Part shown: piece after piece, positions 1 to 23,393 of the stretch
Numbering within the stretch: the stretch's first letter is position 1
How the letters are laid out: every line of letters begins with the position of its first letter
Source of the DNA: Candidatus Wallbacteria bacterium
GTDB lineage: Bacteria; Muiribacteriota; JAQTZZ01
Length of the DNA stretch: 64,000 bases
NCBI GenBank assembly: GCA_028687545.1
Contig: JAQTZZ010000012.1
Location: 24,315 to 88,314, forward strand
Direction of reading: 5' to 3'
The notes under the pieces: generated by a model
The model's input: the letters and a program-made list of their open reading frames with translations, nothing else
Database searches by the model: none
What the model was told of the DNA's origin: nothing
Position numbers and translations under genes: made by a program

Positions 1-1718
1 AGCCTGATCTGCAGATTCAGGCTGGGATGATCAGCGTAAAACACGGTCAAAGGCATCCTTGGCACAAAAAACGGTAATTGCCTGATCCCTCTATAAACAG
101 TCAGATGATAGGTATCGCCGCACGAAAGGAAAAGGTGGAAAGCAGCACCCCACCTTCTAACTATTTCATCGGGAAATCCTTCGCTCCAGTAAGTCAGCCC
201 CATTTCCTGTTGAAAGTTCAGGTTCAGACAGCATTCTCCGGTAGATTGGGACACATGATTACGGAAAACCTTAAACGCTCCCCTTACATGAGGCGTATAG
301 CAGGCATATACCTGCGAGATCCCAAATTTCTTTATCAGGAATTCCCTAGCTGCCAGATCCCGCTTCTCGCCTTCTCCGGCCAGTTGGCCGGCATCTCTCC
401 AGATCAGAGTAAGATCCTGATCACTGGACAATCTTTTCTCAAGCAGCACCCCGGCGTTCTCCGGGGTGTATTCAGGGGTTGTCAGGGGAGTGATTTCCGG
501 AGAAATATACATTTTCGCCGTCCCGAGCATGGCGAAAGGCGACTCCAGCAGTGGACCGGGTCTGTTTGAACGCGCTAGAAAATCCCTGACTTCGAGCAGG
601 CTCCGGTCTCGAACTGAAAACTGGCTCAGATCTCCCTGCCATTCAATCAGAAGCAGAACAGCCAGGCACAGGTAACGGACTTTGAGTGGCATCCTGCTCA
701 GGCTGACCGCAAGCAGCAGGATCAGTGCGGGAAGTGCGAACATCGCATGGCTTGGTTCATAGACTGCCGCTGAAAACAGTGCGCTCATCAGATGAGAAAA
801 GCCGAAGAGGAGGAGAAGTGGGAAAAAGAGATAAGCAGCCAGCAGCATGTATTTCCGCCTGATGTCGCCGATTCCCGCTCTGAAGCCATGCAAAAGCAGA
901 ATAATCATGATGATCAGCCCCCAGTAACCTGTCAGCTGGAAATGGCGACCTTCCAGCATGATGCTGAAATTATCCAGAAACTGCATGAAATTGGCAGGTT
1001 TCAGCCACCAGGCATGCAGCGATATCTGATAGGAAAAACCGGGATGGAAGGGCGAGGCTCTGGCACAGACAAGCACCGGAAGTATGCAAACCAGCACAGC
1101 TGCCTGCCAGGCCGCTAAAATTGAGAGCGAACGCAGATTCCGGTGTGTCAGCAGATAGGCTGCGGCCAGGAAGAGAAAAGGAAAAACAAAATAATAATGA
1201 CTGTAAAATCCAAGAACCGATGCCATCACGAGCAGCCAGAAATCCCTTGATTTGCCGGTTTTGTCGAATTTCATCCAGGCCCAGAAGAAAATCACTGAGA
1301 CAAGATACAGCAGAGTGTACATCCTGGCTTCCTGGGAATGGAACATATGCATCGGATTGATCGCGAGTAGGAGAGCCGAAATCACTCCTGCTTCCAATCC
1401 GAACAAGGCGCAGGCAGCCAGGTATGTGACATACACACCGGCTACCCCGAGCAGGGCGGAAGGCAGCCTCAGCGCAAATTCCTGGCTGAGCGGGAGCGAC
1501 AGGAAAGGCCTCAGCATCAGATAATAAAGGGGAGGGTGCACATCGTCTCTAAGGATTTTGACGATGGTCCCGCCAATGCTCCGTCCGGTGTTCCAGTCCC
1601 GGCCGAAAAGTTCATCCCAGAAAAGGCAGAATCCACCCAGATCATGAATTCTGATCCATAATGAAAACAACAGGATAATGTAAATATATTTAGATTTGTG
1701 CTGCCCGATCCTGATCAT
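1..1718 (-). CDS. GT-C family membrane glycosyltransferase (ArnT/PMT_2-like, GT39/GT83 type), 3'-truncated by the window edge
   Basis: Open minus-strand frame runs from the ATG at 1718 past position 1. It is missing from the ORF track because it has no in-window stop. The translation MIRIGQHKSKY...DDVHPPLYYLMLRPF...INPMHMFHSQEARMY...SVLGFYSHYYFVF aligns residue-for-residue with module 1 of the 1765-aa ORF at 8074..13371 (EDTHPPTYYLLERPF...NPFHFYHSQEARMY). The C-terminal soluble part (DLAAREFLIKKFGISQVYACYTPHVRGAFKVF) matches that ORF's module tails. Its ATG overlaps the stop of the upstream ORF in an ATGA arrangement. Confidence 0.6.
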   Translation of the reverse strand, partial: MIRIGQHKSKYIYIILLFSLWIRIHDLGGFCLFWDELFGRDWNTGRSIGGTIVKILRDDVHPPLYYLMLRPFLSLPLSQEFALRLPSALLGVAGVYVTYLAACALFGLEAGVISALLLAINPMHMFHSQEARMYTLLYLVSVIFFWAWMKFDKTGKSRDFWLLVMASVLGFYSHYYFVFPFLFLAAAYLLTHRNLRSLSILAAWQAAVLVCILPVLVCARASPFHPGFSYQISLHAWWLKPANFMQFLDNFSIMLEGRHFQLTGYWGLIIMIILLLHGFRAGIGDIRRKYMLLAAYLFFPLLLLFGFSHLMSALFSAAVYEPSHAMFALPALILLLAVSLSRMPLKVRYLCLAVLLLIEWQGDLSQFSVRDRSLLEVRDFLARSNRPGPLLESPFAMLGTAKMYISPEITPLTTPEYTPENAGVLLEKRLSSDQDLTLIWRDAGQLAGEGEKRDLAAREFLIKKFGISQVYACYTPHVRGAFKVFRNHVSQSTGECCLNLNFQQEMGLTYWSEGFPDEIVRRWGAAFHLFLSCGDTYHLTVYRGIRQLPFFVPRMPLTVFYADHPSLNLQIR

Positions 1719-2125
1719 GCTGCCAGCAGGAAAGTGAATTTAAGGAGCTTTTCCCGGGTCAGGTACTCGATTTTCATTTCCCTGGACATTTTACTAGCCA
1801 TGAAAAGCCCGTATCCGTCAACCGGAAGCTCTTCGATTCTGGGTGGCAGGAGCTTGATTTCAGAATACTCCTGGTCAATGTAGGTTACAATCAGCTGAAG
1901 CTTATCCGCAAAAAGGCTGACTTCATATCTGAAAAGGCTTTCAGCGGGAGAGACGCTGTGCCTGAGAAAATTGGTGAACATTTCATTGAGGATAAAAGTA
2001 AGGTCATTCAGGCGCGAATGGCTGATTCCATCCCCTGATAAAGCCTTCTGCAGATCCTCTCTGAGGATGGAGATGAATTCGACCTTCTTCGGATAGGAAA
2101 AATCGATCTTCCTATTTTCCTTCAT
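1715..2125 (-). CDS. small ATP-binding protein, anti-sigma-factor-like HATPase (RsbW/SpoIIAB type) candidate
   Basis: 136-aa ORF with an N-box-like LNEMFTNFLRHS and a G-box-like VDGYGLFMASKM. It overlaps the yvcK stop by 14 nt and the downstream GT-C start by 4 nt (ATGA). Confidence 0.4.
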   Translation of the reverse strand: MKENRKIDFSYPKKVEFISILREDLQKALSGDGISHSRLNDLTFILNEMFTNFLRHSVSPAESLFRYEVSLFADKLQLIVTYIDQEYSEIKLLPPRIEELPVDGYGLFMASKMSREMKIEYLTREKLLKFTFLLAA

Positions 2126-3371
2126 AGATCCTGTTAACCACCAGGTTGATAATCAGCCGGGCCAGCTTCTTGAAATTATGCCTTAAATAATCCGACTCCT
2201 CCATCAATTCGTCCAGGACAATGTCGGTGTCGAGCCTCGCCAGCTGGTCCCTGTCGACCACAACCGGATACGACTCCTTGAGAGCATATCTGGTGAGCGA
2301 TTCTTCGGATCCCCGCTGGGAATTGATGATGCAATAATCCAGCTTCACTTTAGGCAGATACTCCAGAATAGTCCTGATGTGATCGGAAGCCGTGAAACCG
2401 CTCGTCTCATGTGGCTGAGTCATGATGTTGCAGATGTAAATCTTGAGGGCCGCGCTTTCAGACAGCACAGCCCGGATTTCCGGTATCAGCAGATTCGGGA
2501 TCACGCTGGTGAACAGGCTGCCGGGTCCGAATATGATGCAGTCAGCCTCACTGATGGCCTGGATCACTTTATGATTGACGGCTGTTCCAGGGGGATCCAG
2601 AAAGACCCGCTTGATCTCCTTGCCCTGGGTGATGCCGATTTCGGATTCCCCTGCAGCGATGCTGCCGTTTTTCAATTCTGCCATCAGTGTGTGCGATGAA
2701 CTCATCGCAGGCAGTATTGTACCTTTGATCGCCAGGATTTTGCTGGATTCCTCCACTGCCCGTTCGAAATCTCCGGTGACATTCGTCAGCGCGGCAATGA
2801 AGAGATTTCCGAAACTATGCCCTGAAAGTTCTCCGCTGCCCTCGAATCTGTATTTGAAAAGTTCAGCCATCAGGGTTTCCTCGTTGGCCAGGCTTACAAG
2901 ACAGTTTCTGATGTCGCCTGGAGGCAGGATATGCAGTTCCGCCCTGATGCGGCCTGAACTCCCTCCATCATCCATCACGGTCACTACAGCGGTTACATTC
3001 CGCTCATCGTAGAATCTGGAATAGCGTTTGATTCCACGCAGAAGGGTCGACAATCCCGTTCCGCCGCCGATTACCACTATTTTGGGAGCGATTTCGAAAT
3101 GTCTGGGTGGAAAGAATTTGGCAGCCTCTTTGCTGTCGAATCCCCTCAGCAACTCAAAAATATACCGGATCACCCTGTAATAAGAATAACCGAGCAGGCC
3201 ACAGGCAGGAGTGAAGAAAAGCAGGAAAAAAAACAGCGAGAGTTTCTGCAGACCAAGAAAAACAATCTCCACCGTAATCAGGGCTGAAGACAGTATCAGG
3301 ATAATCAGCCATCTGCGCAGTTCAATGTCCGGCAGCAGGAACCGGAATTTTTCAAACAGTTTTTTACCCAT
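2112..3371 (-). CDS. yvcK: YvcK/GlmR family protein (UPF0052, CofD-like) with an N-terminal transmembrane extension
   Basis: KIVVIGGGTGLSTLLRGIK glycine-rich loop, VMDDGGSSGRIR and the following conserved YvcK blocks. The first roughly 90 aa are hydrophobic (LIILILSSALITVEIVFLGL...FFFLLFFTPACGLLGY). Confidence 0.8.
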   Translation of the reverse strand: MGKKLFEKFRFLLPDIELRRWLIILILSSALITVEIVFLGLQKLSLFFFLLFFTPACGLLGYSYYRVIRYIFELLRGFDSKEAAKFFPPRHFEIAPKIVVIGGGTGLSTLLRGIKRYSRFYDERNVTAVVTVMDDGGSSGRIRAELHILPPGDIRNCLVSLANEETLMAELFKYRFEGSGELSGHSFGNLFIAALTNVTGDFERAVEESSKILAIKGTILPAMSSSHTLMAELKNGSIAAGESEIGITQGKEIKRVFLDPPGTAVNHKVIQAISEADCIIFGPGSLFTSVIPNLLIPEIRAVLSESAALKIYICNIMTQPHETSGFTASDHIRTILEYLPKVKLDYCIINSQRGSEESLTRYALKESYPVVVDRDQLARLDTDIVLDELMEESDYLRHNFKKLARLIINLVVNRIYEGK

Positions 3372-7111: not shown

Positions 7112-7133
7112 ACTTTTCCGTAATTAGCTGACA

Positions 7134-7297
7134 GATGTGTTGGCAGTGCTCAGTTTGGTTTTAATCGTGTCGAAAATGTCACCGATCGATGAGCCGGTAG
7201 CGGTCAGAGCTGCGATGGCCACGATGGCGATCAGGCCGAGGATCAGTCCGTATTCGACCATTCCCTGTCCAGATTCCTCTCTGAAAAATCTTGTCAT
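7134..7297 (-). CDS. flp: Flp/Fap family type IVb pilin subunit, 54 aa, below the ORF-track length cutoff
   Basis: Minus-strand translation MTRFFREESGQGMVEYGLILGLIAIVAIAALTATGSSIGDIFDTIKTKLSTANTSVS shows the canonical Flp G/xxxxEY processing motif and hydrophobic core. The RBS AGGAGGCGC lies 3 nt upstream and a terminator lies downstream. Confidence 0.75.
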
Positions 7298-7516: not shown

Positions 7517-7771
7517 TCAACTCTCCTGAAGCTCCACCGCCTCCCTGCTGATTTCAGAGGCGAGTCCGAGCAGCAGTTTTTCTTCTGCTTCGAGTTGGTT
7601 CAATTCAGTCCGCTGCTCGTTCAATTTATACTCCAGTCCATCCGGATCGCCGGAAAGCGCTTCCTCGGTCAGGGAAACCAATTCCTTCATCAACAGATCC
7701 AGCCTGACTTCGAGCTCCCGCTGTTCGTTTCTAAGGTTTTTCAGATATGTGATCTTTTCGTAAAGATTCAT
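7517..7771 (-). CDS. hypothetical coiled-coil protein
   Basis: Heptad-rich sequence (LKNLRNEQRELEVRLDLLMKEL..). Coding status is uncertain. Confidence 0.3.
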   Translation of the reverse strand: MNLYEKITYLKNLRNEQRELEVRLDLLMKELVSLTEEALSGDPDGLEYKLNEQRTELNQLEAEEKLLLGLASEISREAVELQES

Positions 7772-8042
7772 CGAGCCCTGCAATTTTCTCTCCCCATCCG
7801 TTGATGATCTTCTTCAGGCATTTGACCCGTTCCCTCTTGATTTCCACCATAAACTCAAGATTTTCCAGTGTTGTCCTCAGATTCTCGGCGATCGGCTTAT
7901 GTCTGGCGCCGGTATGGTTCAGGCTCAGTATTCTCTCTTCCAGATCTGAGATTTCCTTTTTTTTGGACAAGTTGTCAGCTTCTATCAACTGGATGGACTC
8001 GTCAAGCTTTTGAAGTGAGGCGAACAATCCTTTGCTCATGAT
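7731..8042 (-). CDS. hypothetical coiled-coil protein
   Basis: The probable start is MIMSKGLFASLQKL. The track's longer N-terminus overlaps the stop of the giant GT-C ORF. Coding status is uncertain. Confidence 0.3.
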   Translation of the reverse strand: MMSKGLFASLQKLDESIQLIEADNLSKKKEISDLEERILSLNHTGARHKPIAENLRTTLENLEFMVEIKRERVKCLKKIINGWGEKIAGLDESLRKDHISEKP

Positions 8043-8073
8043 CATTGATAATTTTAGCATCAATAGCCTGATT

Positions 8074-11000
8074 TTACAATGCCTGACCCTCAGCACGCTT
8101 TTCCTGCAACTTCCAGGCAAGCTGACTCACCAGTAAGAATGCCGGGCAGCAGAGCGCTGAAATCCAGCAGAGGTTGAGCAGCATTATGTAAAACAGATTG
8201 AAATAAAAAGGCGGGCTGATTTCTATTTGATAATTACCAGGGGAAAGAATCAGGAGCGGAGGAAGAGAGCAGATGGAAAAGTCAAAAGGCCAATGTCTGA
8301 AATCGCGGCACAATTCAAGATTGTAGATTTCGCCGCAGGTCAGGGATAATTCATACTTTCTGCCAAATGGCAGGATTTTTCTCTGAGAAGGTTCATTTTC
8401 TTTGTAAATTTCCAGGCTGAGTTTATCCGGAAAAGTCAGTTCCAGGGCGGCAGTCCCATCCTCCCTGCCCGAGGATTTATCATACAAAATCAGGGACCCT
8501 GGTGCTGAATTCGGAGATAAGAAGGCTCTCACCGGCTGCAGATTGTATTTCTCCGTAAACCTGCTCACCTTCTGATTATCCTGCTCGAAATACTTATCTC
8601 CTGAATGGGATAAATTGCGGACGATTAGGTGATACCTGTCCTGGAGTCCGTTTTCCCATGTTTCCCTGCATTGAGATAGTGCCAGAGCTTTATGAGTCAG
8701 AATTTCCCTCCCTGCTGCCAGATCCCTGTCTGGAGAAATCAGAAATTTATCTGGTTTTTCACAGTCAACTTTTAAACATTGCTTAAGCTGAAAATAACTT
8801 CTGTCTTTATTAGCTAGTGTATTGATGTCCTGCTGAAGAAATATCAGGACTAAGGAGAAAAGCCAGATCCTCCTGGCCATGGCGTTCACACCTGAAACAG
8901 GGTGGCACAGAAGCGCGAGAAAAGGTGGAACAGCCAGCAATGTATCTGCAGTAAATAAAGTGATGAAAAGGTAATACAGCATGGTTCGGCCGGCCTTTGG
9001 CACCATGCGGTATCCCAGGAGCAGCGTCAGAAGCCACATGATCTGAACACTGGTTTCATCTCCGCAGAAGTAAAAACCTCCCAGCAGTTTCTGAAACTGT
9101 CCGACCAATTCAGAATGCCAGGAAACTTGAATTCCAGATTCAATCAATATCAGCAGCCGGTAAAGGATGAACAGTGAAATCCAGGCGGTCTGGAACAATC
9201 CAGGTTTTCTTTCCCATTTGCCTATGAACAGAAGATACAGTATTCCGCCGCTTATCAGCGCCATCCATAACAGATCCGGTTCAAAAAGACCGAGCAGGGC
9301 TGCAGCAGCTGTCAGCAAGGCTTTCCCAAGCGTGAGTGGAAGTACCGCACTCCAGAAAATCAGGGACAGATCGAAGTTGATGATTCTGATCAGATCCTGC
9401 TGGGCATACAGGAAATACAGAGGAATGAGGGGCAGCAGCATTAAAGACAGCCGGGCAGTCCCAGCTCCTGAAACGGATTTCACCAGCCGGTAAGTAAGGA
9501 ATCCTCCGGCAATAGAGGCCAGGATCGAGCAGATCCTGAGCGATCCGTAATCCAGACCAAGTGCTTTGCTCAGGCTGATTTCAGGGTACTCAGGACAGGC
9601 TCCATTGATGTCCACCAGCAGGATGGCAGCTGCGTAAAGAGTAAAAATGGTCAGCGGATGCCTGCAAACAGCTGCGACAGCTCCAGGAGCGGACAGGCAG
9701 CTCCGTAATTCTGCAGCCTGGATTTTCAGTCTGGAGATCAGAGTAAAGGCTCTTTCCGCAGCATAGAAGTAAATCAGTTGAACTGGCGGCTTCAGATAAA
9801 TTTTAAGCTTCCTGCAGGGCAGACAGTTGCCTAGTGCGATTAATAGCAGGACAAACCAGGCGGCATTGATCATCAATATCCACCATTTTCTGAAAATCAG
9901 AGGCAGCCGCAAGTCGAACTCCAGATTGCCCCCACCAGTGGAAACGACCGGAGGAAGTTCCCAGGATGCGTAAAAAAACGGGCAATAGTCGAGCGCTCGG
10001 CTCATCCTGAAATGATTCACTGTTCCTGTAGACAGGGGAACTTTAAAATTGTAGTTCCAGAGCTGTACCTGCGGGTTTCGCCAGTTTTCCTCGGAATAAT
10101 ATTCCAGGATTGTTGAGCAGTCGAATTTGAGTTGCAGCTGCGATTCAGTTTCGCTGACTGTTGATGTGCGTTGCCTGAATGCGACTAAAGAAAATGGGGC
10201 TGAACCAGGAGTATTAAATGCAAAAGCAGGTACCAGGTTGTTTTCCCTTATCAAGCATCGAGTGATCTCTGCTTCCCTCTCGCCGATGCTGCTTACTTGC
10301 TCCGGCGAATTTTCAATAAAAAGTACATTTTCGTGGCCTGGAATCAGTTTCTGATTCAACCTCTCCCTGGCCAGATCCATAGACATCTCTTTTTTTTCAA
10401 GCAGAGGGATCAGGCGGCACATCAAGCGCTGTGCAACCTGGCTGCTTCGCTCAGACGGGGAATACAGAAGATTCGTCCCTTCCCGCAAGTCTTTATCGAG
10501 ATACTGTTTGAGCTGCGACAGGCTGTGGTCGCATTTAAGCAGTGTATCCAGGTCACCCTGCAGGAAGATCAGCATGATTGCCAGGGAAAACAACGCAGCG
10601 AACGGATTCGGAAGCTTTCCTGCAATGTATCCAAACAGGATCAGGATCAGGGGAGCCAGGAAGCCGAACTCAGTGGCTTCTGGATTTACTGCCGGGCCGT
10701 TCGCAAACGGATGGAACATAAAAAGCAGGGTCAGGCTGAGCAGGATTGCCGAACAGATGGACAGGAATTTTCTCAATTCTCCGCATCTGCCGGCAGTGAA
10801 TACTCCTGAAATCAAAGTTATCCCGACCAGCATCGCCGCATACCTGAACTGCACTGAAAAAAGAAATCCATTGGTAAAGCTATAGATAAAGTCATGCAGC
10901 GCCGGGATCTGGTTCCAGTATTGGGTACAGAGAAGATCAAAGCTCTTTGGCCGGAATTTCTGAAGCCCACTCAAAAAATAAATTATCGAGGGGGAAGAGA

Positions 11001-13362
11001 AGATCAGCACTGCAGCCTGCCATTTGAGAAAATGATCCCTGTTCAACTCTTTCTTGTGTATTACTGAAAACAGGATGCTGAAGAGGTAAATCCCCAGAAA
11101 GCCGCCCTGGGAAAAAGTAAACCCGGCCAGGCTCACGCAGGCCAGCAGTTCCCATGAGCAGCCCCCGCGCAGGAATCTCAAAAAAAGAAAAAGGTAGAAC
11201 GCGGTCAGAAAGACAGTTACTGAAGCCTCGGGAAATTGGAGATTAAGGCAGAATAAAAATGGGGAAAGCGAGGCAAAGAGTGCTGAATAGAGTCCTGTTT
11301 TCACTCCAAACAGCTCTTTCCCCAGCAGGTAGATACAATAGATTCCCAGCAGTCCTACTGTCTTCGCGGAAGTCGCGGATATGCCCAGTGAATGCTCGCT
11401 GAAGAGCAAAACAGTAAATGCGAAAACCAGGGTAAAGAAAAGAGGAGGGTTCAGGTGCTCAGACTCCATTTTCTGGCGAAATTCAGATGCAATGCCGGAA
11501 AACCATCCCAGAAGCAATTCCCGGTAATTTCTCAGGTCAGACTGCAGGAGCCCCAGAATCGAGGAAAAAAGCAGAAAGCACCAGGCCAGATCCAGGAGCA
11601 GTATCCAGGGTGTTCTGAAATAAAAAGGTATATTCAGATTTCTGACCTCTTCTCCACGTTTCAGAAACAACAATGGCGGGAGGCAGAGTGAAGGATTGAA
11701 AAGCTGGGAATGGACATTTTCCGACCAGGTGTGCAACCGTCTCCAGGCGTCCAGATGATAGCATTTTCCGGTAGACAAGGTCAGAGAGGCTGTGCCGTTA
11801 TCGTCGGCAATCGTCTGGATTGCCTCAGGTTCGTCTTCAGAGTAAAGATTGTACCCCATGGGCAGCCTGTTTTTCAGTTTCAATGAATATATCTCCCCTG
11901 TAGAGCAAGGTTGGGAGTTGCCATACACAGTAATCGCCTGATAAGGACTCTGGGGAGAAAAAAATACGGCCTGAGGATTCAATGAATATTTCTTTCTGAG
12001 ATAGTCTCTGGCAATCAGGTCCTGTGGCTGGCTTTCTCCTAGGCGCTGCCCGATTTCCCTGAAGACCAGGAATACATTCCCAGTTCCGGTCTGAGCATCG
12101 ATCAAAGTTTCAATGCTGCCTGCAGACAGGCCTTTATACGAAGGCCAGGCCAGGGACCGGGAGCCGGCAATGTATGAGCCGGCCACTTCGCTCAGCGCGA
12201 AAGGGGAGGTGAAAACAGTTCCGCCCAAGCCTTTCAGATAATCCCTGATCTGAAACAGGCTCCTGTCCAGGTTGTCCTGATAGCCGAGAATGCTCTGGAA
12301 AAATATCAGGAGCAGCGCTCCGAGAGCCGGGATCCTGACCATCCCCGGCAGCAGTGTGAAAAACCTGGCCATGAAGATCAGGAGAGCCGGCAGTGCTATG
12401 ATCCCATGCCTCATCCTGTAAACAGCCACTCCTGAAAAATGGAAAAAAAGTTCGGAAGTGAAAAAAAGGAGGAGCAGAGGAATCAATAAATAACCCAGCA
12501 GGAACAGCTCCCCTGAATTCTGCCCGCGATATACCCTGAGCAGCATCGTAGTCAGCACAATCAGCAGAAACAGGGTAATCGCCCACCAGGAATAATAATA
12601 AAAATATCCTTCCAGGAAATGCCTGATGATCTCGATGAATTCGAAGAAATGAGTCGGAGGAAGCCAGCCTGCGCAGGATTTCAGCAAAGTCCCGTACCTG
12701 GAGTTGAGCGGGGAGACGCTTCCGAAAATCAGGACAGGGCTGAGCCCGGCAAAGACAGATAACATCCAGACGAAAAGGCTGCGAAGTCCTGCCTTCTGGT
12801 TCAGGGTGGCCAAAAAATGCAGGGCTGCGAAAGCGAACACAAAGATAAAGTAATAGTCGCTGTAAAATCCGGCAAGCGAGGAAACAACCAGTACCGCCAG
12901 AGACTTTCTGCCCGGATTTTCCCGGAAACGCAGATAATACAGGATGAACTGCGCGCTCGCCCAGTAAAGCATCGAATACATCCGGGCTTCCTGTGAATGA
13001 TAGAAATGGAAAGGATTGAAGGCGCAGAGCAGCGCAGCGAACAGACCTGCGTTCAGTCCGAACATGAAAGAGCCGAGCCTGAAAGTATAATAAATTCCGG
13101 CTACTCCGAAGAAGACAGAAACAAGTCTCAGGCAGGTTTCCAGTGAAAACGGCAGCTTAAGGAAAGGTCTTTCCAGTAAATAATATGTGGGAGGGTGTGT
13201 ATCTTCCTGCAGCACCCGGGAAACAAGGCTCAGAGCTGAACATTCCCGGTTGATCTTTAAACCATAGTGTTCGTCCCAGTCCAGACAGAAATCGGACAGG
13301 CGATAAAGGCGCAGCGCTAGTCCCAGGACCAGAATCAGCAGGATCAGATGCTTTTTTTTCAT
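8074..13362 (-). CDS. roughly 1760-aa fusion of three tandem GT-C (ArnT/PMT_2-like) glycosyltransferase modules
   Basis: Each module has a polytopic membrane domain followed by a roughly 200-aa soluble domain and a C-terminal TM helix. The three soluble domains align with each other and with the 1..1718 paralog. Module 1 carries the HPPTYY and HFYHSQEARMY motifs. The start was moved to MKKKHLILLIL. Confidence 0.7.
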   Translation of the reverse strand: MKKKHLILLILVLGLALRLYRLSDFCLDWDEHYGLKINRECSALSLVSRVLQEDTHPPTYYLLERPFLKLPFSLETCLRLVSVFFGVAGIYYTFRLGSFMFGLNAGLFAALLCAFNPFHFYHSQEARMYSMLYWASAQFILYYLRFRENPGRKSLAVLVVSSLAGFYSDYYFIFVFAFAALHFLATLNQKAGLRSLFVWMLSVFAGLSPVLIFGSVSPLNSRYGTLLKSCAGWLPPTHFFEFIEIIRHFLEGYFYYYSWWAITLFLLIVLTTMLLRVYRGQNSGELFLLGYLLIPLLLLFFTSELFFHFSGVAVYRMRHGIIALPALLIFMARFFTLLPGMVRIPALGALLLIFFQSILGYQDNLDRSLFQIRDYLKGLGGTVFTSPFALSEVAGSYIAGSRSLAWPSYKGLSAGSIETLIDAQTGTGNVFLVFREIGQRLGESQPQDLIARDYLRKKYSLNPQAVFFSPQSPYQAITVYGNSQPCSTGEIYSLKLKNRLPMGYNLYSEDEPEAIQTIADDNGTASLTLSTGKCYHLDAWRRLHTWSENVHSQLFNPSLCLPPLLFLKRGEEVRNLNIPFYFRTPWILLLDLAWCFLLFSSILGLLQSDLRNYRELLLGWFSGIASEFRQKMESEHLNPPLFFTLVFAFTVLLFSEHSLGISATSAKTVGLLGIYCIYLLGKELFGVKTGLYSALFASLSPFLFCLNLQFPEASVTVFLTAFYLFLFLRFLRGGCSWELLACVSLAGFTFSQGGFLGIYLFSILFSVIHKKELNRDHFLKWQAAVLIFSSPSIIYFLSGLQKFRPKSFDLLCTQYWNQIPALHDFIYSFTNGFLFSVQFRYAAMLVGITLISGVFTAGRCGELRKFLSICSAILLSLTLLFMFHPFANGPAVNPEATEFGFLAPLILILFGYIAGKLPNPFAALFSLAIMLIFLQGDLDTLLKCDHSLSQLKQYLDKDLREGTNLLYSPSERSSQVAQRLMCRLIPLLEKKEMSMDLARERLNQKLIPGHENVLFIENSPEQVSSIGEREAEITRCLIRENNLVPAFAFNTPGSAPFSLVAFRQRTSTVSETESQLQLKFDCSTILEYYSEENWRNPQVQLWNYNFKVPLSTGTVNHFRMSRALDYCPFFYASWELPPVVSTGGGNLEFDLRLPLIFRKWWILMINAAWFVLLLIALGNCLPCRKLKIYLKPPVQLIYFYAAERAFTLISRLKIQAAELRSCLSAPGAVAAVCRHPLTIFTLYAAAILLVDINGACPEYPEISLSKALGLDYGSLRICSILASIAGGFLTYRLVKSVSGAGTARLSLMLLPLIPLYFLYAQQDLIRIINFDLSLIFWSAVLPLTLGKALLTAAAALLGLFEPDLLWMALISGGILYLLFIGKWERKPGLFQTAWISLFILYRLLILIESGIQVSWHSELVGQFQKLLGGFYFCGDETSVQIMWLLTLLLGYRMVPKAGRTMLYYLFITLFTADTLLAVPPFLALLCHPVSGVNAMARRIWLFSLVLIFLQQDINTLANKDRSYFQLKQCLKVDCEKPDKFLISPDRDLAAGREILTHKALALSQCRETWENGLQDRYHLIVRNLSHSGDKYFEQDNQKVSRFTEKYNLQPVRAFLSPNSAPGSLILYDKSSGREDGTAALELTFPDKLSLEIYKENEPSQRKILPFGRKYELSLTCGEIYNLELCRDFRHWPFDFSICSLPPLLILSPGNYQIEISPPFYFNLFYIMLLNLCWISALCCPAFLLVSQLAWKLQEKRAEGQAL

Positions 13363-13375
13363 TATAAACACGGAA

Positions 13376-14092
13376 TCACCGTCCGCACACGGAATTCAGA
13401 AGTCCCGGAATTTCTCTGCAGGCGCGGTTGTAGTCCTCCTGAACCCCGATGTCGATGAAATAGCCTTGAGAAACAAATCCGCCGATTTTCAGTTGATCCG
13501 GATTTTTCTGCAGCAGCTCCGTTTCCAGCGAAAATTTCTCAGGCAGCTTTAATCCCTTTAATGATTTCCTGGACATCACATAAACACCGGCATTGATCAA
13601 CCCAGACTGCCGGGATTTTTTTTCAGAAAAAGTTTCCACCATTTTACCCTTGGTCAGGGTAATGCAGCCGTATCTCTCAAAATTCTGCAGCTCACGCAGG
13701 GCAATGGTGATATCACAGCCGTTCTCGACATGCCATTGCAGAAGTTTCCGGGGGTCAAGCTCCAGAAAAGTGTCGCCATTAAAAACAGGAAAACAATCGC
13801 CCTGCATCAGGGGGAGAGCATGCAGGACAGCACCACCGGTACCCAGTGGTGTTTCCTCCTGAGAGTATTCGATGGTTGTCCCGTCAAGCCTGGATCCGAA
13901 AAAGTCACTGATCCGGTCCGCCATGAATCCAGTGGAGATCACCAGTCTCTGGAAGCCACTGACAGAAAGATATTTAAGCAGATACCAGAGAAATGGTTTC
14001 CCCTCAATGGGAAACATAGGTTTCGGAAGCCCCATTGCAGAGCTCTGCAGCCTGGTTCCCATCCCTCCTGCCAAGATCAGACCTTCCATCAT
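13376..14092 (-). CDS. hddC: sugar-1-phosphate nucleotidyltransferase (HddC/mannose-1-P guanylyltransferase-like)
   Basis: LILAGGMGTRL signature, a GTGGA block and PVFNGDTF. Its stop lies 4 nt before the start of the giant GT-C ORF. Confidence 0.65.
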   Translation of the reverse strand: MMEGLILAGGMGTRLQSSAMGLPKPMFPIEGKPFLWYLLKYLSVSGFQRLVISTGFMADRISDFFGSRLDGTTIEYSQEETPLGTGGAVLHALPLMQGDCFPVFNGDTFLELDPRKLLQWHVENGCDITIALRELQNFERYGCITLTKGKMVETFSEKKSRQSGLINAGVYVMSRKSLKGLKLPEKFSLETELLQKNPDQLKIGGFVSQGYFIDIGVQEDYNRACREIPGLLNSVCGR

Positions 14093-14096
14093 CGGG

Positions 14097-15116
14097 TCAG
14101 CTCGCCCAGGTTTCCAGGCCCTTGTCGACGAATTGGAATCTTCTGAACTCCCCTCCGAATTCCTTCAATCTTTCTATTACCGGATGCCGCTTGTTCGCTG
14201 GACAATAAAATATCATGAAACCGCCCCCTCCTGCCCCGGTAAGCTTTCCACCGGTAGCTCCTGCCTTGATCGCTGCATCGTAAATCTCATCGATCATGGG
14301 ATTCGAGATCCCTTCAGCCAGATCTTTCTTATATTTCCAGCCGAAGTTCAGCAGTTCTCCGATCTCATCCAGCTTTCCTTTCAGGATGGCTTCTTTCATC
14401 AGCACTGCCTGCTCCTTGAGCTTGTGCATGGCCTGGACCGCCTTCTCTTCATTTGCAGTCACACTTCTGACCTGGGCTTCGATGATCCTGGAGGACAGCC
14501 TGCTCGTCCCGGTGTAATACAGCACAAGGTTATGCTGGAGTTCATTCAGATAGTCGTCCTTGACTCTCAATGGATTCACCAGTACCCTGTCATTACCGGA
14601 AAATTCAATGAAATTGAATCCGCCAAACGCGGCGGAATAATGGTCCTGCTTCCCGCCGGCCATCAGCATGTCGAGGCGCTCTATCTCGTATGCAAGATGG
14701 GCAATCTCATATTTTCCGAGCGGCAGTTTATGCCATTCTGCGAACGCGCCGACAATCGCCACCACCAGGGTGGATGAAGACCCCAGCCCTGAACCGGGGG
14801 GAGAATCGACGCAGGTCGAAAGTTCAAACGACTGCTTTCCAAGGGAATATCTTTCCACCAGCCTGTTATAAACAGCTTTGATCAAATCCAGCTTTCCATT
14901 CAATTCCAGTTTTTCCAAGGCAGGGAATCTGCTTTTTTCTCCCCTGTCTACTGCATTCAGGGAAATCGTCCCGACCGCCGGTTCGATTGAGGCATAGGCA
15001 TACAGACTGATCGTGGTATTGAGGACAGTTCCCCCGAAAATGTCGGAATAGGGATGCACATCAGTACCGCCACCGGCGAGACCGAGACGAAGCGGAGCCT
15101 TGCTTCTGAAAATCAC
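14097..15116 (-). CDS. hddA: GHMP-family sugar kinase (HddA-like D,D-heptose 7-phosphate kinase candidate)
   Basis: APLRLGLAGGGTD N-terminus and the GHMP motif PPGSGLGSSSTLVVAIVGA. It is adjacent to the nucleotidyltransferase gene. Confidence 0.65.
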   Translation of the reverse strand: MIFRSKAPLRLGLAGGGTDVHPYSDIFGGTVLNTTISLYAYASIEPAVGTISLNAVDRGEKSRFPALEKLELNGKLDLIKAVYNRLVERYSLGKQSFELSTCVDSPPGSGLGSSSTLVVAIVGAFAEWHKLPLGKYEIAHLAYEIERLDMLMAGGKQDHYSAAFGGFNFIEFSGNDRVLVNPLRVKDDYLNELQHNLVLYYTGTSRLSSRIIEAQVRSVTANEEKAVQAMHKLKEQAVLMKEAILKGKLDEIGELLNFGWKYKKDLAEGISNPMIDEIYDAAIKAGATGGKLTGAGGGGFMIFYCPANKRHPVIERLKEFGGEFRRFQFVDKGLETWAS

Positions 15117-15124
15117 TTCACCCC

Positions 15125-15835
15125 CTAAAGTCTTCCAAATGCCTTGAGCAGTATTGTTGCCTTTAAGCAGCGGAACAGTTTGAAAAAGTCAAGTTTGGAT
15201 TTCCCTCCACCTCTGTCGTGGAAATCATACGGCAATTCCATGATCCTGTATTTACTGCGCAGGAAATGATAAAGCAGTTCTTCAGTGATCTCCGGACCAA
15301 GGGAATTAAGATTCGGAAGAATACCGGCGATCACCTCTCTCCGCAAGGCAGCGAACCCGCTGGTGGGATCTTTGATGTCCGTGGAAAAGAGCACTCTGAC
15401 CCAGCCGCTGGAAGCAAAGCTTAACAGCTTTCTCAACAGGCCGCTCCGCAGGTCTCTGCCGTTTCCACTGAAACGGGAAGCGAGCACCACATGATATTTA
15501 TCCAGATAAGAAAGCATCCTGACAATTGTCTCAGGAGGATGGGAAAGATCGCCGTCCATGTAGGCAAGGTAAGGAAAATCCCAGTGGTCCAGGGCGTATC
15601 TGTAGCCTTCGATTGCAGCTGTCCCCCTCCCCCGCCTCTGCTTTCTGACGAGCAGGTGAAGATTGGAGAATCGATCCTGCATTGCAATCACCCGGTCGCC
15701 TGTACCGTCTGGAGAATCATCGTCCACCACCAGCAGAATTTCATCAGGCAGCGCATTGAAGTATTCAGTCACCAGCTGCCCGATGTTTTCCGCTTCATTA
15801 AATGTGAAAACCAGTGTCACCAGCTTTCCGCTCAC
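15125..15835 (-). CDS. GT2 polyprenyl-phosphate sugar synthase (Dpm1-like), soluble catalytic type
   Basis: LVTLVFTFNEAENI..LLVVDDDSPDGTGD..YLAYMDGDLSHPPE are GT-A DxD/DAD motifs typical of dolichyl- or polyprenyl-phosphate mannose/glucose synthases. Confidence 0.8.
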   Translation of the reverse strand: MSGKLVTLVFTFNEAENIGQLVTEYFNALPDEILLVVDDDSPDGTGDRVIAMQDRFSNLHLLVRKQRRGRGTAAIEGYRYALDHWDFPYLAYMDGDLSHPPETIVRMLSYLDKYHVVLASRFSGNGRDLRSGLLRKLLSFASSGWVRVLFSTDIKDPTSGFAALRREVIAGILPNLNSLGPEITEELLYHFLRSKYRIMELPYDFHDRGGGKSKLDFFKLFRCLKATILLKAFGRL

Positions 15836-15943: not shown

Positions 15944-18013
15944 TTATTTCTTCTGATTCAACTGCCCATGAATCGAACAGATCAGGTTTAGACTCCCATT
16001 CGCATTTTTTTCCAGAATGTATTCTCCGCCTGCAGGACATTTCTCGAAAAGTCTGCAGAGCTCAAAATTCCTGAGATCCTGAAAATTTCGAGGTTCTCCC
16101 CTGGTCTGGATGTAAATGGGAATCGTGTTCATAAAATTAGTCAGATTCAATCTGCATTCTTTTAACTTCATCTCTTCAGAAACATCCGGATCTGGTTTTT
16201 CTGAATTTATCGAGGTCTCGGAAGTGGGCAGCGCTTGACTTGGACTTTTCTGCGTCCCGTCTTCGTTGAATTTCTCTGCTTCGATCAATCTGCCTTTCTC
16301 GTATCTGGAAATTATGGCGCAGGCTCTGCCTGGATAAAATTCCTTCTGTTCACCGTTAAGCAAACCGAGAGTATAATTGCGCACAGTGACAGAGCCGGTT
16401 TCTGAAGTAGAAATGTATATTCCGTCAGGTTTTGAATTAAAAAGCGCCACAGCATTGATCACTGAAAATGTCCGGCTCAATCCTCCAGTATCGAGATCTT
16501 TGAGAGATTCAAACTGGCCGTAAACACTGACCAGATTCCCGAACGAGATGTTCTTGTCAGCGAAAACTTCTTCACTGATCCTTACCAGGGCTCCTATTCC
16601 TGTCGCCTCGACTGTTCCGCCATTCGTATCATAGAACGACTGGAACAGGGTAGAAGTGGCAGCAGGACTCTGGGTGGGTTCGATCAGATACAATTCTTCA
16701 GTGCCTGGCAGTTTACGGCTGAGTCGCACGCAGTTCAGATAAACCGGCCTGCCCGAGAGCTTTCTGGCATCGATCGGAGGCCAAAAAGTAATTTTTTCAC
16801 TTGTTACAGAGGCATGGTTTGAGCTGTCAATTTCAATTCCTTTGAGATTCGGCTCCAGTTCACTGAAGCGTGAAATTCCGGTGAAAGCTATTGGTTCCGG
16901 TATTTCTTCTGCAGCCTGGATTTCAATGGAGTTGGCCATCACAATGTTTTCTATAGAATCACCTGACAGGGTATCATTTTCCTTCTTAGTCAGAGATTGA
17001 TTACCAGAATCAATTTTGACTGATTCCTTTTCCTTATTGTTTTGTGCCCGATTCACCCCAATCCAAATATTCCTGAACCCATAGCAGGCATAAATTAATA
17101 AAACCGCCAGCAATAGAACAGGCAGTTTCAAGGAAACGCCTTCCTCAGGTCTTCTCCTTGTCAACACATTGTCTGTACCCGAAAGGTTCACAGTTTCTCT
17201 TTTATCCAGCCTTTTCTTTCTGAAAACAGGGAATAATTTCCAGAATCCGGACGAAAAAGTGCTTTTCCCATGTTCTTTTTTCCGGATCTGGGTTTTCTCC
17301 TGACTGAGCATCTCTTTCTGCCTGCTGACTGCGAATTGGAACAATTTTCTGGCTTCCAGGTCGTCCAGTCCTTTCAAGGCTTCGATTCCGCATACCAGGA
17401 GGTAAGAATCATCGCCGACTACCATCTGTTCAAACGATTCAAGAGCTCTTTTCCGATTCCCCCTGAGCATTGATTCGGCAGTCTTAGCCTTGACCTTACT
17501 GTCCGGGTCTTGCAGAAACGGAGCAATATATTCCATTATCACCGGATTATTTATTAATCCGAATGCCTCAATCGCACTAGCTCTCACTTGAGGATTCTGA
17601 TGTTTCAGCTGTTCAGCGAGCAACGGGATCCCTTCTTCCCCGCCAATTTGTCCAAGCAGGATCAGCAGGCTGGAAAGCACGGCCGGATCTTCTTCAACAG
17701 GGATCAATGACTTCAACAGATCTTTCGGCAGTTTAACACGGCCTGAAATCGCAGCATCCAAAATTCCCTGCTTGGCTTTGGTATCGTTCCCTATCAGGAT
17801 CGTCTCGGGATTCTGAGGATCAGGTGACTTTTCAGACTCGGACAGCAGTCTTCTTGCGTATTGCTGCAGGTCTGGGTTGGGGTCGTTCTGAGCAGACCAG
17901 GATAATATTTTCCTTTTATCCGGGAACTGCATCAGAGCGATTGTGTCGAGAGCCTTTTTCCTTGTTTCAGGTTTGGGATCCGCGAGCAGTTTTTTCAGTT
18001 CTTCCCAGGTCAT
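15944..18013 (-). CDS. HEAT-repeat (PBS-lyase type) membrane protein with an uncharacterised C-terminal domain
   Basis: N-terminal HEAT-like repeats (NPQVRASAIEAFG, DPDSKVKAKTAESML), then one TM helix (LPVLLLAVLLIYACYGF), then a roughly 350-aa Ser/Thr-rich domain. Confidence 0.5.
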   Translation of the reverse strand: MTWEELKKLLADPKPETRKKALDTIALMQFPDKRKILSWSAQNDPNPDLQQYARRLLSESEKSPDPQNPETILIGNDTKAKQGILDAAISGRVKLPKDLLKSLIPVEEDPAVLSSLLILLGQIGGEEGIPLLAEQLKHQNPQVRASAIEAFGLINNPVIMEYIAPFLQDPDSKVKAKTAESMLRGNRKRALESFEQMVVGDDSYLLVCGIEALKGLDDLEARKLFQFAVSRQKEMLSQEKTQIRKKEHGKSTFSSGFWKLFPVFRKKRLDKRETVNLSGTDNVLTRRRPEEGVSLKLPVLLLAVLLIYACYGFRNIWIGVNRAQNNKEKESVKIDSGNQSLTKKENDTLSGDSIENIVMANSIEIQAAEEIPEPIAFTGISRFSELEPNLKGIEIDSSNHASVTSEKITFWPPIDARKLSGRPVYLNCVRLSRKLPGTEELYLIEPTQSPAATSTLFQSFYDTNGGTVEATGIGALVRISEEVFADKNISFGNLVSVYGQFESLKDLDTGGLSRTFSVINAVALFNSKPDGIYISTSETGSVTVRNYTLGLLNGEQKEFYPGRACAIISRYEKGRLIEAEKFNEDGTQKSPSQALPTSETSINSEKPDPDVSEEMKLKECRLNLTNFMNTIPIYIQTRGEPRNFQDLRNFELCRLFEKCPAGGEYILEKNANGSLNLICSIHGQLNQKK

Positions 18014-18166: not shown

Positions 18167-18242
18167 TGGTGCCCCCAAGGAGATTCGAACTCCTGTCGCA
18201 GGCTTGAAAGGCCTGTGTCCTAGGCCCCTAGACGATGGGGGC
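18167..18242 (-). tRNA. tRNA-Glu (anticodon TTC)
   Basis: The minus-strand sequence GCCCCCATCGTCTAGGGGCCTAGGACACAGGCCTTTCAAGCCTGCGACAGGAGTTCGAATCTCCTTGGGGGCACCA folds as a cloverleaf. The anticodon loop is CTTTCAA and the 3' end is CCA. Confidence 0.85.
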
Positions 18243-18495
18243 TCAGTCTGCTGAAAAAAGCCTGTCTGCTTCGTTGCCCTCGAACTCAGTCGGTCGCTGT
18301 ACGTTTAGTACAGCTCCCTCCATCGTTCTCGCGCGCCTCGCATCCAGACTTTTTTGAGCAGACTGGTGGAAAACGCATTGGGCATCATCAACAATTCTGA
18401 GTCTTTTGCTTACCTTTTCGCATCCAGGTATTTGTGACAACCTGGAACCAACGATATGGCAATGCTCACCTTACTGAGCTTTGGCTTGGTTAACC

Positions 18496-18571
18496 TGGTG
18501 GGCCCACCAGGGGTCGAACCTGGGACCACCCGGTTATGAGCCGGGAGCTCTGCCAACTGAGCTATGGGCCC
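18496..18571 (-). tRNA. tRNA-Met (anticodon CAT); elongator Met or tRNA-Ile2 type, not initiator
   Basis: Minus-strand sequence GGGCCCATAGCTCAGTTGGCAGAGCTCCCGGCTCATAACCGGGTGGTCCCAGGTTCGACCCCTGGTGGGCCCACCA. The 1-72 pair is G-C, which excludes initiator tRNA. Confidence 0.8.
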
Positions 18572-18752
18572 TATGGCATGAGCTATTTTATTAAAGCTAG
18601 CTAGCCATGTCAAGAAATTTTGCGAATAATCAGGGACTAATAGACTGTATTCAGTATCTAATACGAATTCTCCAACATACCAACTTACAAACATACTAAC
18701 ATACCAACTTCTTGCAGTGCATATGCGATTAAATGAAACTGATTAATGTCAG

Positions 18753-19520
18753 TTAAATTTCAAAGTACTGCATTACGAACAGAAACGCAGGCAGAACAAG
18801 AATCGCCCCGTCGATGCGGTCCCAGACCCCGCCATGTCCTGGAAGGATACTGGATGAGTCTTTGAGATTCGCCCGCCGCTTCCAGGCTGATTCGAAGATG
18901 TCGCCTGTATGCCCGATCACAGAAGCGATTATCGCTAGAACTGAAACAGTGAAAACGCCTGTGCCAAAAAAATGACTGGCAACCGCGAATTCCACAATGA
19001 AAGTTCCGGATAGCCCGGCGATAAATCCTTCCCATGATTTCTTGGGCGAGATCCTCGGGCAGATCTTGTGTCGTCCAAAGGAGCAGCCGAAATAAAATGC
19101 AAAGATGTCATAGCACCAGAGGAAGGAAAACAGCCAGATAAATTTTGCGGCTCCCAGCCTGTAATACAATTCGCTTCCGCAACTCATCAGGGAAAAGTAC
19201 ATCAGCAGGAAGAAACCCAGGCTGAGCCTCTCCAGGGCTGGAAAAAGGTCATTTTTATTGAGTGCGATCAGGATGGCACCGATGATCACCAGATAGCGGA
19301 TCTCGGCATTCACGAAAACCGCTTCTGCCGTGTAGAGAAGAAAAAAACCGGAGAACAGAAAATAGATTCTTTCGATCCCGGATAGCCCTGCCACAGTCAA
19401 TCCTTCAGTTAGGGCCAGCAGGAAAATTGCAGCCCAGAGCCATTCGAATCCTGTCGGGAGGAAAGAGGCTATCCCGATGAAAACAACTGCGCAGAAAAGA
19501 CCGGTGAGCAGTCGTTTCAT
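18753..19520 (-). CDS. cdsA: phosphatidate cytidylyltransferase (CDP-diglyceride synthase)
   Basis: C-terminal signature KDSSSILPGHGGVWDRIDGAIL and a multi-TM body. The start was set at MKRLLTGLF, immediately after the uppS stop. Confidence 0.8.
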   Translation of the reverse strand: MKRLLTGLFCAVVFIGIASFLPTGFEWLWAAIFLLALTEGLTVAGLSGIERIYFLFSGFFLLYTAEAVFVNAEIRYLVIIGAILIALNKNDLFPALERLSLGFFLLMYFSLMSCGSELYYRLGAAKFIWLFSFLWCYDIFAFYFGCSFGRHKICPRISPKKSWEGFIAGLSGTFIVEFAVASHFFGTGVFTVSVLAIIASVIGHTGDIFESAWKRRANLKDSSSILPGHGGVWDRIDGAILVLPAFLFVMQYFEI

Positions 19521-19521
19521 C

Positions 19522-20250
19522 TCAGACCCCGCCGTAGCGGCGTTCGCGCTTGGTGTACTCCTGGATCGCGCGCAGAAAATCGATTTTCCTGAATTCAGGC
19601 CAGAATCGCGGCGTGACATAGATTTCGCTGTAGGCGCACTGCCAGAGCATGAAATTGGAGATGCGCATCTCGCCGCTCGTGCGGATCAGCAGGTCCACAT
19701 CCGGAAGTTCAGGCAGGTAGAAGAAGCTCTTGAATTTAGACTCAGAAAGTGGCCCGGCAGTGACCTGCTCCAGTGCTTTGTTTACTGCGTCGAGGATTTC
19801 AGTCTTGCCGCTGTAATTCAGCGCCAGCACCAGATTCAGCCCTCCGCAATCCCTGGTTTCCGCAATCGCTTTTCTAAGCTCTTTTTCCGACTCAGCGGGT
19901 AATTCATGGGTTCTGCCGACAGCGGACAACCTGACATTGTTTTTCTTCAGCTTTTTCACTTCTCGACGCAGATAATCCCTTAGCAAAGTCATCAGACCAT
20001 TGACTTCATCCTTAGGACGTGACCAGTTTTCTGTGGAGAAGGCATAAAGGGAGAGATACTGGATTCCAAGCTTGCCGGCTGTTTCCACCGCCATCCGGAC
20101 GGACTTGACTCCCTCCTGATGTCCCACGATGCGCGGCAGGAAGCGCTTTTTGGCCCAGCGGCCATTACCATCCATGATAATGGCGATATGGCGGGGCAGG
20201 TTGGTCCCTGCCCGGCTCAGTTCGCTCATCAATTCGTTTTCAGTTCCCAT
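19522..20250 (-). CDS. uppS: undecaprenyl-diphosphate synthase (isoprenyl transferase)
   Basis: HIAIIMDGNGRWA, YLSLYAFSTENWSRP, RTSGEMRISNFMLWQ. Confidence 0.9.
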   Translation of the reverse strand: MGTENELMSELSRAGTNLPRHIAIIMDGNGRWAKKRFLPRIVGHQEGVKSVRMAVETAGKLGIQYLSLYAFSTENWSRPKDEVNGLMTLLRDYLRREVKKLKKNNVRLSAVGRTHELPAESEKELRKAIAETRDCGGLNLVLALNYSGKTEILDAVNKALEQVTAGPLSESKFKSFFYLPELPDVDLLIRTSGEMRISNFMLWQCAYSEIYVTPRFWPEFRKIDFLRAIQEYTKRERRYGGV

Positions 20251-20269
20251 GGAACCTCAGTCAAATGGA

Positions 20270-20827: not shown

Positions 20828-20829
20828 GA

Positions 20830-22868: not shown

Positions 22869-23393
22869 TTCTGTTCCTCCGGGTTTGGTTTTTTTCCTCC
22901 ATTTCCATCATCTTTGCCTCGTATACCTGCTTAGCAGTCAAAACAGGGCACCTACGAGGAAATCCGGAAATGTGTGAAATTCTGTTATAAGGTAATGGAT
23001 TCAGGCTGCAATTACAAGGAATTCATCTCGGACCGGTAACCACTTTGTTTGATAAATTCTAATTTCCAAAACCATCTTTCGAGGATCCCGTAGAAATCTT
23101 CTCTTTTGTCGATATTAAAATCAACACTTGTCGTTATCCGGTTTTTCTGTCTGAGCTGACGAGGCAGTATCGATATTGATCCTTCCATTGCTGGAAGCGG
23201 AGGGGCTGTTGATAAATCCCCAGCCGAACAGCATGAGGACTAAAGCTCCGGCAGCTTTGAAAAGTATAATAATGATATTTACCATTATTCCCAGCCTTCC
23301 CGAAATCACTTTATTTTAACCCAAGCCTGACAACACTTCAATTTTCCCCTGATTTTCTTGAATCAAACTCTCCTGAAATATTATAATCAATGA

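Follow-up and report, generated by a model that had tools for sequence, protein, structure and literature searches.

A GT-C glycosyltransferase module joined to two degenerate copies in one predicted 36-helix membrane protein of a Candidatus Wallbacteria bacterium

Glycosyltransferases of the GT-C fold are single-module enzymes that often assemble as homo- or heterodimers. Their active site is marked by an acidic pair, D55/E56 in ArnT and D77/E78 in Pmt1, with a corresponding pair in EmbA/B (PMC7801869). In three-component extracytoplasmic glycosylation, the GT-C enzyme uses a lipid-linked monosaccharide outside the cytoplasm, and a flippase is normally needed to deliver it (PMC11127046). Here we describe a locus in a 64,000-nucleotide (nt) stretch of a Candidatus Wallbacteria metagenome-assembled genome (MAG; contig JAQTZZ010000012.1), hereafter the window, in which one open reading frame (ORF) encodes three GT-C modules in tandem. 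The explanation we favor, with a probability of roughly 0.6, is that one active GT-C module is fused to two pseudo-enzyme partner modules in a single protein of about 36 transmembrane (TM) helices. The protein and its parts occupy the following window positions:

8074..13371, minus strand: triple GT-C ORF, 1765 amino acids (aa), three tandem GT-C modules, about 36 predicted TM helices.
11527..13371, minus strand: module 1 (M1), residues 1-615, probable active GT-C enzyme.
9802..11526, minus strand: module 2 (M2), residues 616-1190, degenerate GT-C module.
8077..9801, minus strand: module 3 (M3), residues 1191-1765, the most degenerate of the three.
11614..12273, minus strand: soluble domain 1, residues 367-586, alpha/beta subdomain then beta-sandwich.
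9889..10536, minus strand: soluble domain 2, residues 946-1161.
8197..8832, minus strand: soluble domain 3, residues 1514-1725.
11533..11613, minus strand: C-terminal TM helix of M1, predicted to run from outside to inside, followed by a loop that contains Lys and Arg (K/R) and lacks the Asp-Glu (DE) motif.

In every module, a polytopic membrane domain is followed by roughly 215 aa of soluble domain and then by a C-terminal TM helix. When the undivided protein was compared with itself by BLAST, only the identity match appeared; homology between modules emerged after splitting, when phmmer returned E values of 1e-22 for M1-M2, 6e-24 for M2-M3 and 3e-19 for M1-M3. A first reading made without database searches (the sequence-only reading) had proposed a head-to-tail fusion of three GT-C modules of PMT_2/ArnT/PMT-like type, and these values, from 1e-19 to 1e-24, bear it out. 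Its three soluble tails, which it gave in the order M1, M3, M2, do align with one another, and the CxLPPLL-type endings that it described are present in 3/3 tails as LPPLL or LPPVV segments plus the terminal TM helix. The C-terminal TM helices of the M3 membrane domain, its soluble domain and its final helix are clearly homologous to those of M1 and M2. None of the soluble domains matched a Pfam family.

Family assignment of the membrane domains proved uneven. Pfam PMT_2 (PF13231; gathering score 26.1 bits) matched M1 at 33.2 bits, M2 at 37.3 bits and an unfused paralog in the window, described below, at 48.1 bits, while M3 had no Pfam GT-C match at all; each third had been expected to match such a family, and two of the three modules do. 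PMT_2 was the only family of its kind recovered. PF02366 (PMT), MIR and PMT_4TMC gave no Pfam match at E <= 10, so that the name 'family 39' carried by the identical NCBI protein (MDD2715741.1, 'MAG: glycosyltransferase family 39 protein [Candidatus Wallbacteria bacterium]', on an 88-kb contig) is generic. There was no NCBIfam match to ArnT, similarity to solved ArnT being confined to the level of fold, and neither the module profile nor the paralog retrieved a chain from the Protein Data Bank (PDB) by sequence at E <= 10.

The AlphaFold2 model of M1, made with 61 sequences, had a predicted local distance difference test (pLDDT) score of 87.9 and a predicted template-modeling (pTM) score of 0.91. 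It contains, in order, TM1, three short juxtamembrane helices, ten TM helices, the alpha/beta subdomain, the beta-sandwich and a long final helix. The model thus has the defining traits of the GT-C fold, a bundle of many TM helices and a first outer loop containing juxtamembrane helices. For M3 the corresponding scores were 73 and 0.77. Its alignment was made of GT-C homologs, which biases the fold and makes it soft evidence; GT-C enzymes head the Foldseek list for this model, but with E >= 2e-3 and none at E <= 1e-3.

The evidence that separates M1 from the other two modules lies in the catalytic signature of the family, whose main elements in M1 are:

13270..13278, minus strand: W32-D33-E34, catalytic acidic motif of external loop 1, found in M1 only among the modules.
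13180..13197, minus strand: HPPTYY motif, in the third juxtamembrane helix of M1.
12976..12999, minus strand: HSQEARMY motif, in the extracytoplasmic turn of M1 between TM3 and TM4.

Of 65 PMT_2-type homologs, 62 have the Asp of the DE motif and 63 the Glu. Further signature positions, namely HPP-Y, R82 at the start of TM2, Q-E-x-R-x-Y after TM3, H172 (TM5/6) and R321 before TM10, are kept in 44-61 of the 65, and W-D-E, H-P-P and Q-E-A-R-M-Y are among those invariant in the six nearest relatives. M1 retains the whole signature except for an Asp at the H172 position; the paralog does so except for a Ser at the Arg before TM10. In M2, TM1 and the DE segment are absent (aligned residues are FS or gaps), and replacements in M1 numbering comprise H59N, R82S, Q127L, E128Q, R130P and Y132A, together with, by alignment, F/S for H172 and E/T for R321, leaving only PP of the signature. 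M3 has no Asp at the DE position in 4/4 alignments, where the aligned residues are IS, AE or gaps and MAFFT alignments place a Glu in the E34 column; it carries E128Q, R130L, Y132R and H172P and keeps H59, P60, R82 and Q127. Between six and nine conserved active-site positions are replaced in M2 and M3.

Profile scores follow the same gradient. A profile of the active N-terminal domain scored 302 bits on M1, 73.7 bits on M2 and -7 bits on M3. The M2 match starts at position 60 of the hidden Markov model (HMM), the HPP motif, and homology of M2 to the family correspondingly begins at NPPLFF; the N-terminal membrane half of M3 gave no significant match to the active-family profile. When active members are compared with one another, conservation peaks in the catalytic N-terminal TM part (40-48% identity) and is lowest in the beta subdomain (16-28%), whereas comparison of M2 or M3 with any other member gives 19-25% for the N-terminal TM part and 20-32% for the beta subdomain. 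Identity thus falls in the N-terminal TM part and holds in the beta subdomain, indicating that constraint was lost specifically on the catalytic half. Judged by the DE motif, M1 is the sole predicted active enzyme among the modules, and M2 and M3 are probably inactive catalytically.

These results bear on the proposal of the sequence-only reading that the protein performs three sequential or alternative transfer steps, a proposal that they do not support, the DE motif and other family-invariant residues being confined to M1. We consider it unlikely that all three modules are active and that each polypeptide carries out three sugar transfers, in series or as alternatives. Such activity would agree with the overall architecture kept in all modules, with a frame open throughout, with an M2 score above the PMT_2 gathering threshold and with the acidic residues that remain in short outer loops of M2 and M3. 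It is opposed by the absence from both modules of TM1 and of a motif held by 62-63 of 65 homologs, by replacement of the QEARMY residues, H172 and the Arg before TM10 as well, and by loss of about half the conservation of the catalytic N-terminal half but not of the beta subdomain. Helix parity, moreover, places the corresponding M2 and M3 loop in the cytoplasm, and the operon holds only one line of donor supply.

The parity argument starts from the M1 model, in which 11 TM helices precede the soluble domain, so that the WDE loop and the soluble domain would share the extracytoplasmic side. The terminal helix of M1 would then return the chain to the cytoplasm, making the subsequent loop cytoplasmic. 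The loop that follows the terminal helix has 23 residues with four K/R at the start of M2, and 42 residues with six K/R and no Asp at the start of M3. The first of the two junctions is made up as follows:

11404..11532, minus strand: M1/M2 junction, loop RNYRELLLGWFSGIASEFRQKMESEH followed by the uniformly hydrophobic helix NPPLFFTLVFAFTVLL.

The M1 counterpart of this junction helix is a 10-residue amphipathic juxtamembrane helix (HPPTYYLLERPF); the M2 counterpart is uniformly hydrophobic, and that of M3 is a kinked helix of 22 residues (AVAAVCRHPLTIFTLYAAAILLV). From hydropathy, TM parity and K/R bias, we infer that the M2 junction helix crosses the membrane in place of the juxtamembrane helix. 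If the junction helix does span the membrane, the ten later helices and the soluble domain keep their ancestral orientation, giving 12 helices per module and 36 in total. Under this 36-TM model, K+R account for 43 of 217 residues predicted to be cytoplasmic versus 29 of 363 outside. By module, the inside and outside counts are 18 versus 4 in M3, 14 versus 9 in M2 and 11 versus 16 in M1. Helices were defined for this count by their hydrophobic cores, raw DSSP helix ends having been uninformative. The bias is supportive of the 36-TM model without deciding it.

The origin of the modules can be approached through a separate, unfused paralog, the presence of which was correctly noted at the outset:

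1..1718, minus strand: unfused paralog P0067 (MDD2715731.1), 572 aa inside the window, full length 611 aa.

The paralog matches M1 at a phmmer E value of 1e-94 with 36% identity and ends in the same type of C-terminal TM helix. It carries WDE, and the motifs said to be common to the two proteins are indeed so, as HPPTYY and HSQEARMY in M1 and HPPLYY and HSQEARMY in the paralog. An exhaustive profile search of 1.84 billion representative proteins yielded six at E <= 1e-30, namely the triple protein, the paralog, two further single-module proteins (611 and 620 aa), a 306-aa fragment and an 845-aa relative; no other protein in that collection matched the module profile in three stretches. A word-indexed protein search added a single-module member of 617 aa (P0006), and such a search with the whole triple protein returned itself plus four weak matches. 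Profile scanning of a set of genome contigs that includes neither the source genome nor a close relative found distant PMT_2 proteins only, in matches that covered the first 150-460 residues. The protein collections searched contained no ortholog of the triple protein, and the literature searched for tandem, fused or duplicated GT-C enzymes describes no such architecture, in keeping with the initial impression that the triple fusion had not been described.

The single-module members, P0067 (611 aa), P0068 (611 aa, from another Wallbacteria MAG), P0069 (620 aa) and P0006 (617 aa), the last two metagenomic, share with M1 the TM1 helix, WDE loop, HPPxYY, SQEARMY, 11 TM helices, alpha/beta subdomain plus beta-sandwich, and C-terminal TM helix, at 32-34% identity. 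They differ from the triple protein in consisting of one module, without its two extra degenerate ones. Context differs too. The three genes with readable surroundings (P0067, P0068 and P0069) lie in a CofD/YvcK-like, HATPase_c_2 and GT-C trio, whereas the triple gene stands behind an HddA/HddC/GT2 operon. Because the trio context is conserved, we take the paralog to be the ancestral ortholog and the triple gene a lineage-specific derivative. A neighbor-joining tree groups M1 with the single-module clade and makes M2 and M3 sisters on long branches, a pattern that fits a degenerate module having been duplicated, but that long-branch attraction may also produce.

The trio is of interest in its own right. 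Its genes overlap and occur in three different organisms (window 1..3371, minus strand; L082 296-3774; L083 8468-11863), encoding a CofD/YvcK-like protein of a UDP-GlcNAc-binding family, an anti-sigma-factor-type kinase of the HATPase_c_2 family (133-137 aa) and a 611-620-aa GT-C enzyme. That the trio recurs in a second Wallbacteria MAG and in marine metagenomes suggests that its genes form a regulated unit for envelope glycosylation. Directly upstream of the window copy lies an ArnC/PgfS-like GT2 gene (3364-4338). Residues of the paralog at about 318-325 read YEPSHAMF, compared with EERHSMF or EHRHSMF in its orthologs and YRMRHGII in M1. The Arg before TM10, present in M1 and in 50 of 65 homologs, is thereby absent from the paralog, and its donor binding may be altered.

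The triple gene is the last of five co-directional, tightly spaced genes behind a strong sigma-70-like site:

18079-18052, minus strand: promoter-like site TTGACA-16-TAGAAT.
15944..18013, minus strand: operon gene 1, 689 aa, N-terminal HEAT repeats, one TM helix, uncharacterized C-terminal domain.
15125..15835, minus strand: short GT2, 236 aa, resembling AglJ, Dol-P-hexose transferase, PpgS and PgfS.
14097..15116, minus strand: HddA-like GHMP sugar kinase, NF049969 at 379.4 bits (cut-off 600).
13376..14092, minus strand: HddC-like sugar-1-phosphate nucleotidyltransferase, NF049965 at 201.7 bits (cut-off 300).

The stop codon of the HddC-like gene lies 13 nt upstream of the likely ATG of the triple gene. 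Matches of the GT2 to AglJ, PgfS, Dol-P-hexose transferase and PpgS were of 33-54 bits, far below the equivalog cut-offs. On balance, the operon content favors a donor route that leads from a sugar phosphate through a nucleoside diphosphate (NDP)-sugar and a polyprenyl-phosphate-linked sugar to the GT-C protein, and our best guess for the donor is a heptose- or mannose-like sugar. No GtrA, SMR or MATE flippase was found among the operon genes or the neighbors examined. The product of operon gene 1 has cytoplasmic HEAT repeats, one TM helix and an extracytoplasmic domain of about 370 aa that matches no family, and is a possible partner or acceptor for the GT-C protein.

Taken as a mechanism, the favored explanation would run as follows. 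The parent would be a rare 611-620-aa GT-C enzyme with a PMT_2-type GT-C_A fold, of which the triple gene would represent three tandem copies. The HddA-like kinase and HddC-like nucleotidyltransferase would make an NDP-sugar, and the 236-aa GT2 would load the sugar onto polyprenyl phosphate. M1, as the only competent enzyme, would take sugar from the polyprenyl-phosphate-sugar at the outer face of the cytoplasmic membrane and hand it to an acceptor by means of D33/E34 of external loop 1. M2 and M3 would be pseudo-glycosyltransferases whose ancestral TM1 and DE-bearing loop are gone. In each, the C-terminal TM helix of the preceding module would lead the chain back into the cytoplasm, and the former HPP juxtamembrane helix, now hydrophobic enough, would cross the membrane, allowing the ten TM helices and the soluble domain to stay oriented. 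The two modules would have been kept as covalent partner protomers in a built-in pseudo-trimer, comparable to Pmt1-Pmt2 or EmbA-EmbB, and would supply a second and a third extracytoplasmic domain, whose probable use is to bind the acceptor. A scaffold role for M2 and M3 has about even odds.

Several points weigh against this explanation. Short outer loops in M2 (FSEHS) and M3 (VDINGACPEYPE) keep acidic residues, so a non-canonical active site is possible. Confidence in the M3 model is intermediate, and its fold carries the bias already described. Topology is drawn from hydropathy, parity and K/R bias, and M1 shows no K/R bias. The HddA and HddC matches fall below the NCBIfam equivalog cut-offs and no GmhA/GmhB-type gene occurs among the annotated window genes (1-28,381 and 36,253-41,637), making the sugar uncertain. 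Finally, a singleton from one sample does not allow selection on M2 and M3 to be measured through orthologs.

There is a small chance that M2 and M3 were instead repurposed, either as non-canonical transferases or as a carrier-lipid device. In the latter form, to which we also assign a low probability, they would have kept a lipid-binding groove with which to bind or flip the donor or channel it to M1, or to recycle polyprenyl phosphate, replacing a flippase. Three-component systems normally need such a protein (PMC11127046), and neither the operon nor the neighbors examined encode one of the GtrA, SMR or MATE type. M3 retains R82, and both modules retain the TM bundle. The proposal is nonetheless purely inferential, and the gene for a flippase could lie in another part of the genome. 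M2 lacks both R82 and the Arg before TM10, which are candidate phosphate binders, and we know of no GT-C module that acts as a flippase.

Less probable still is that M2 and M3 are functionless debris, the decaying tail of a duplication. Loss of the catalytic motifs, long branches and the lack of orthologs to show purifying selection are what debris would look like. Against it, some 1150 codons have stayed open at inter-module identities of only about 20-25%, in a gene whose two other minus-strand frames carry 101 and 48 stops, and the number of TM helices, the K/R bias and the fold of the soluble domain are preserved. Making 24 extra TM helices would be expensive, and without selection such a tail would soon be cut short.

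The single 1765-aa ORF reported at 8074-13371 is open throughout and identical in a second assembly, and we regard it, with its three modules, as almost certainly real. The frame of 1765 codons begins at GTG; a likely ATG at 13362, three codons in, would give 1762 aa, the form identical to MDD2715741.1. In the Logan assembly of run SRR22315507, a contig of 11,271 bp corresponds to window 7273-18543 with 0 mismatches (100% identity); the Logan and NCBI MAG contigs are separate assemblies, possibly of the same sample. Two specific origins were considered and rejected. Repeat-driven assembly collapse or mis-joining is no concern because blastn at word size 7 detected no DNA similarity between modules. 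Three adjacent genes that have lost their stop codons are not a fitting source, as M2 and M3 lack a TM1 and start region of their own and so are not stand-alone genes missing a stop codon. A sequencing or assembly error merging three neighboring genes, or a chimeric contig, is thus highly improbable: although the protein is a singleton from one sample, the 88-kb NCBI and 11-kb Logan contigs agree completely over their 11,271 bp, inter-module DNA repeats are absent, GC content and GC at third codon positions (GC3) are alike across the three modules, and M2 and M3 have no N-terminal TM1 or own start region.

Sequence on either side of the operon supplies additional observations. Directly after the triple gene (7517..8039, minus strand) are two small predicted coiled-coil proteins of 102 and 84-88 aa without a family, both of which are also called in the Logan contig. 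Just downstream of the operon, a 57-aa ORF (7124..7297, minus strand; MTRFFREESGQGMVEYGLILGLIAIV...) resembles Flp-type pilins in its G/xxxxEY processing motif, its hydrophobic helix and a C-terminus rich in Ser and Thr; a hairpin at 7081-7110, called on the plus strand yet palindromic, lies just downstream of it. The Flp-like protein may serve as an acceptor for glycosylation. The operon is immediately preceded by rpsB-tsf-pyrH-frr-uppS-cdsA, then tRNA-Met and tRNA-Glu (18167..22941, minus strand), in which the proximity of uppS (undecaprenyl-diphosphate synthase) is probably ordinary synteny. Farther away, a second giant ORF (36253..41637, plus strand; 1794 aa) contains three FGE-sulfatase (formylglycine-generating-enzyme-like) and four fn3 domains, and is another internally repeated multi-module protein of the same genome.

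If M2 and M3 have been repurposed, one 36-TM polypeptide would constitute a self-contained extracytoplasmic glycosylation machine, possibly with a polyprenyl-phosphate-heptose donor, of which we know no described example. Covalent fusion of three protomers with one catalytic site would provide a natural example of pseudo-enzyme partners in the GT-C fold, and with about 36 TM helices the protein would rank among the largest polytopic proteins of bacteria. It would also illustrate a way in which membrane proteins with an even number of helices can regain their topology once fused head to tail, by loss of TM1 and conversion of a juxtamembrane helix into a TM helix. The weight of these points is limited by the singleton status of the protein, from one uncultured Candidatus Wallbacteria MAG, and the case may be regarded as a curiosity of membrane-protein evolution.

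Comparison with described systems places the novelty in the architecture. ArnT (GT83; PDB 5EZM/5F15) is a single module with 13 TM helices, whereas M1 has 11, an extra beta-sandwich and a terminal TM helix. Dimeric GT-C enzymes are among the structural matches (the Pmt4 homodimer, Pmt1-Pmt2, EmbA-EmbB and EmbC2). In Pmt1-Pmt2 and Pmt4 (GT39), however, the protomers are on separate polypeptides, and both have the DE motif; PMTs also carry a luminal MIR domain and match the PMT and PMT_4TMC Pfam families, features that the triple protein lacks. In the three-component systems (GtrA/GtrB/Gtr* and PPPRS/MATE/GT136), a cytoplasmic GT2-type polyprenyl-phosphate sugar synthase is encoded next to the GT-C enzyme, a logic that the locus would share if its short GT2 is such a synthase. 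The locus differs from them in the absence of a flippase gene from the operon, in having its own kinase and nucleotidyltransferase, and in a GT-C enzyme that is triplicated, with two of the copies degenerate. The triple architecture appears to be undescribed; the GT-C fold and the donor logic on which it is built are of already known types.

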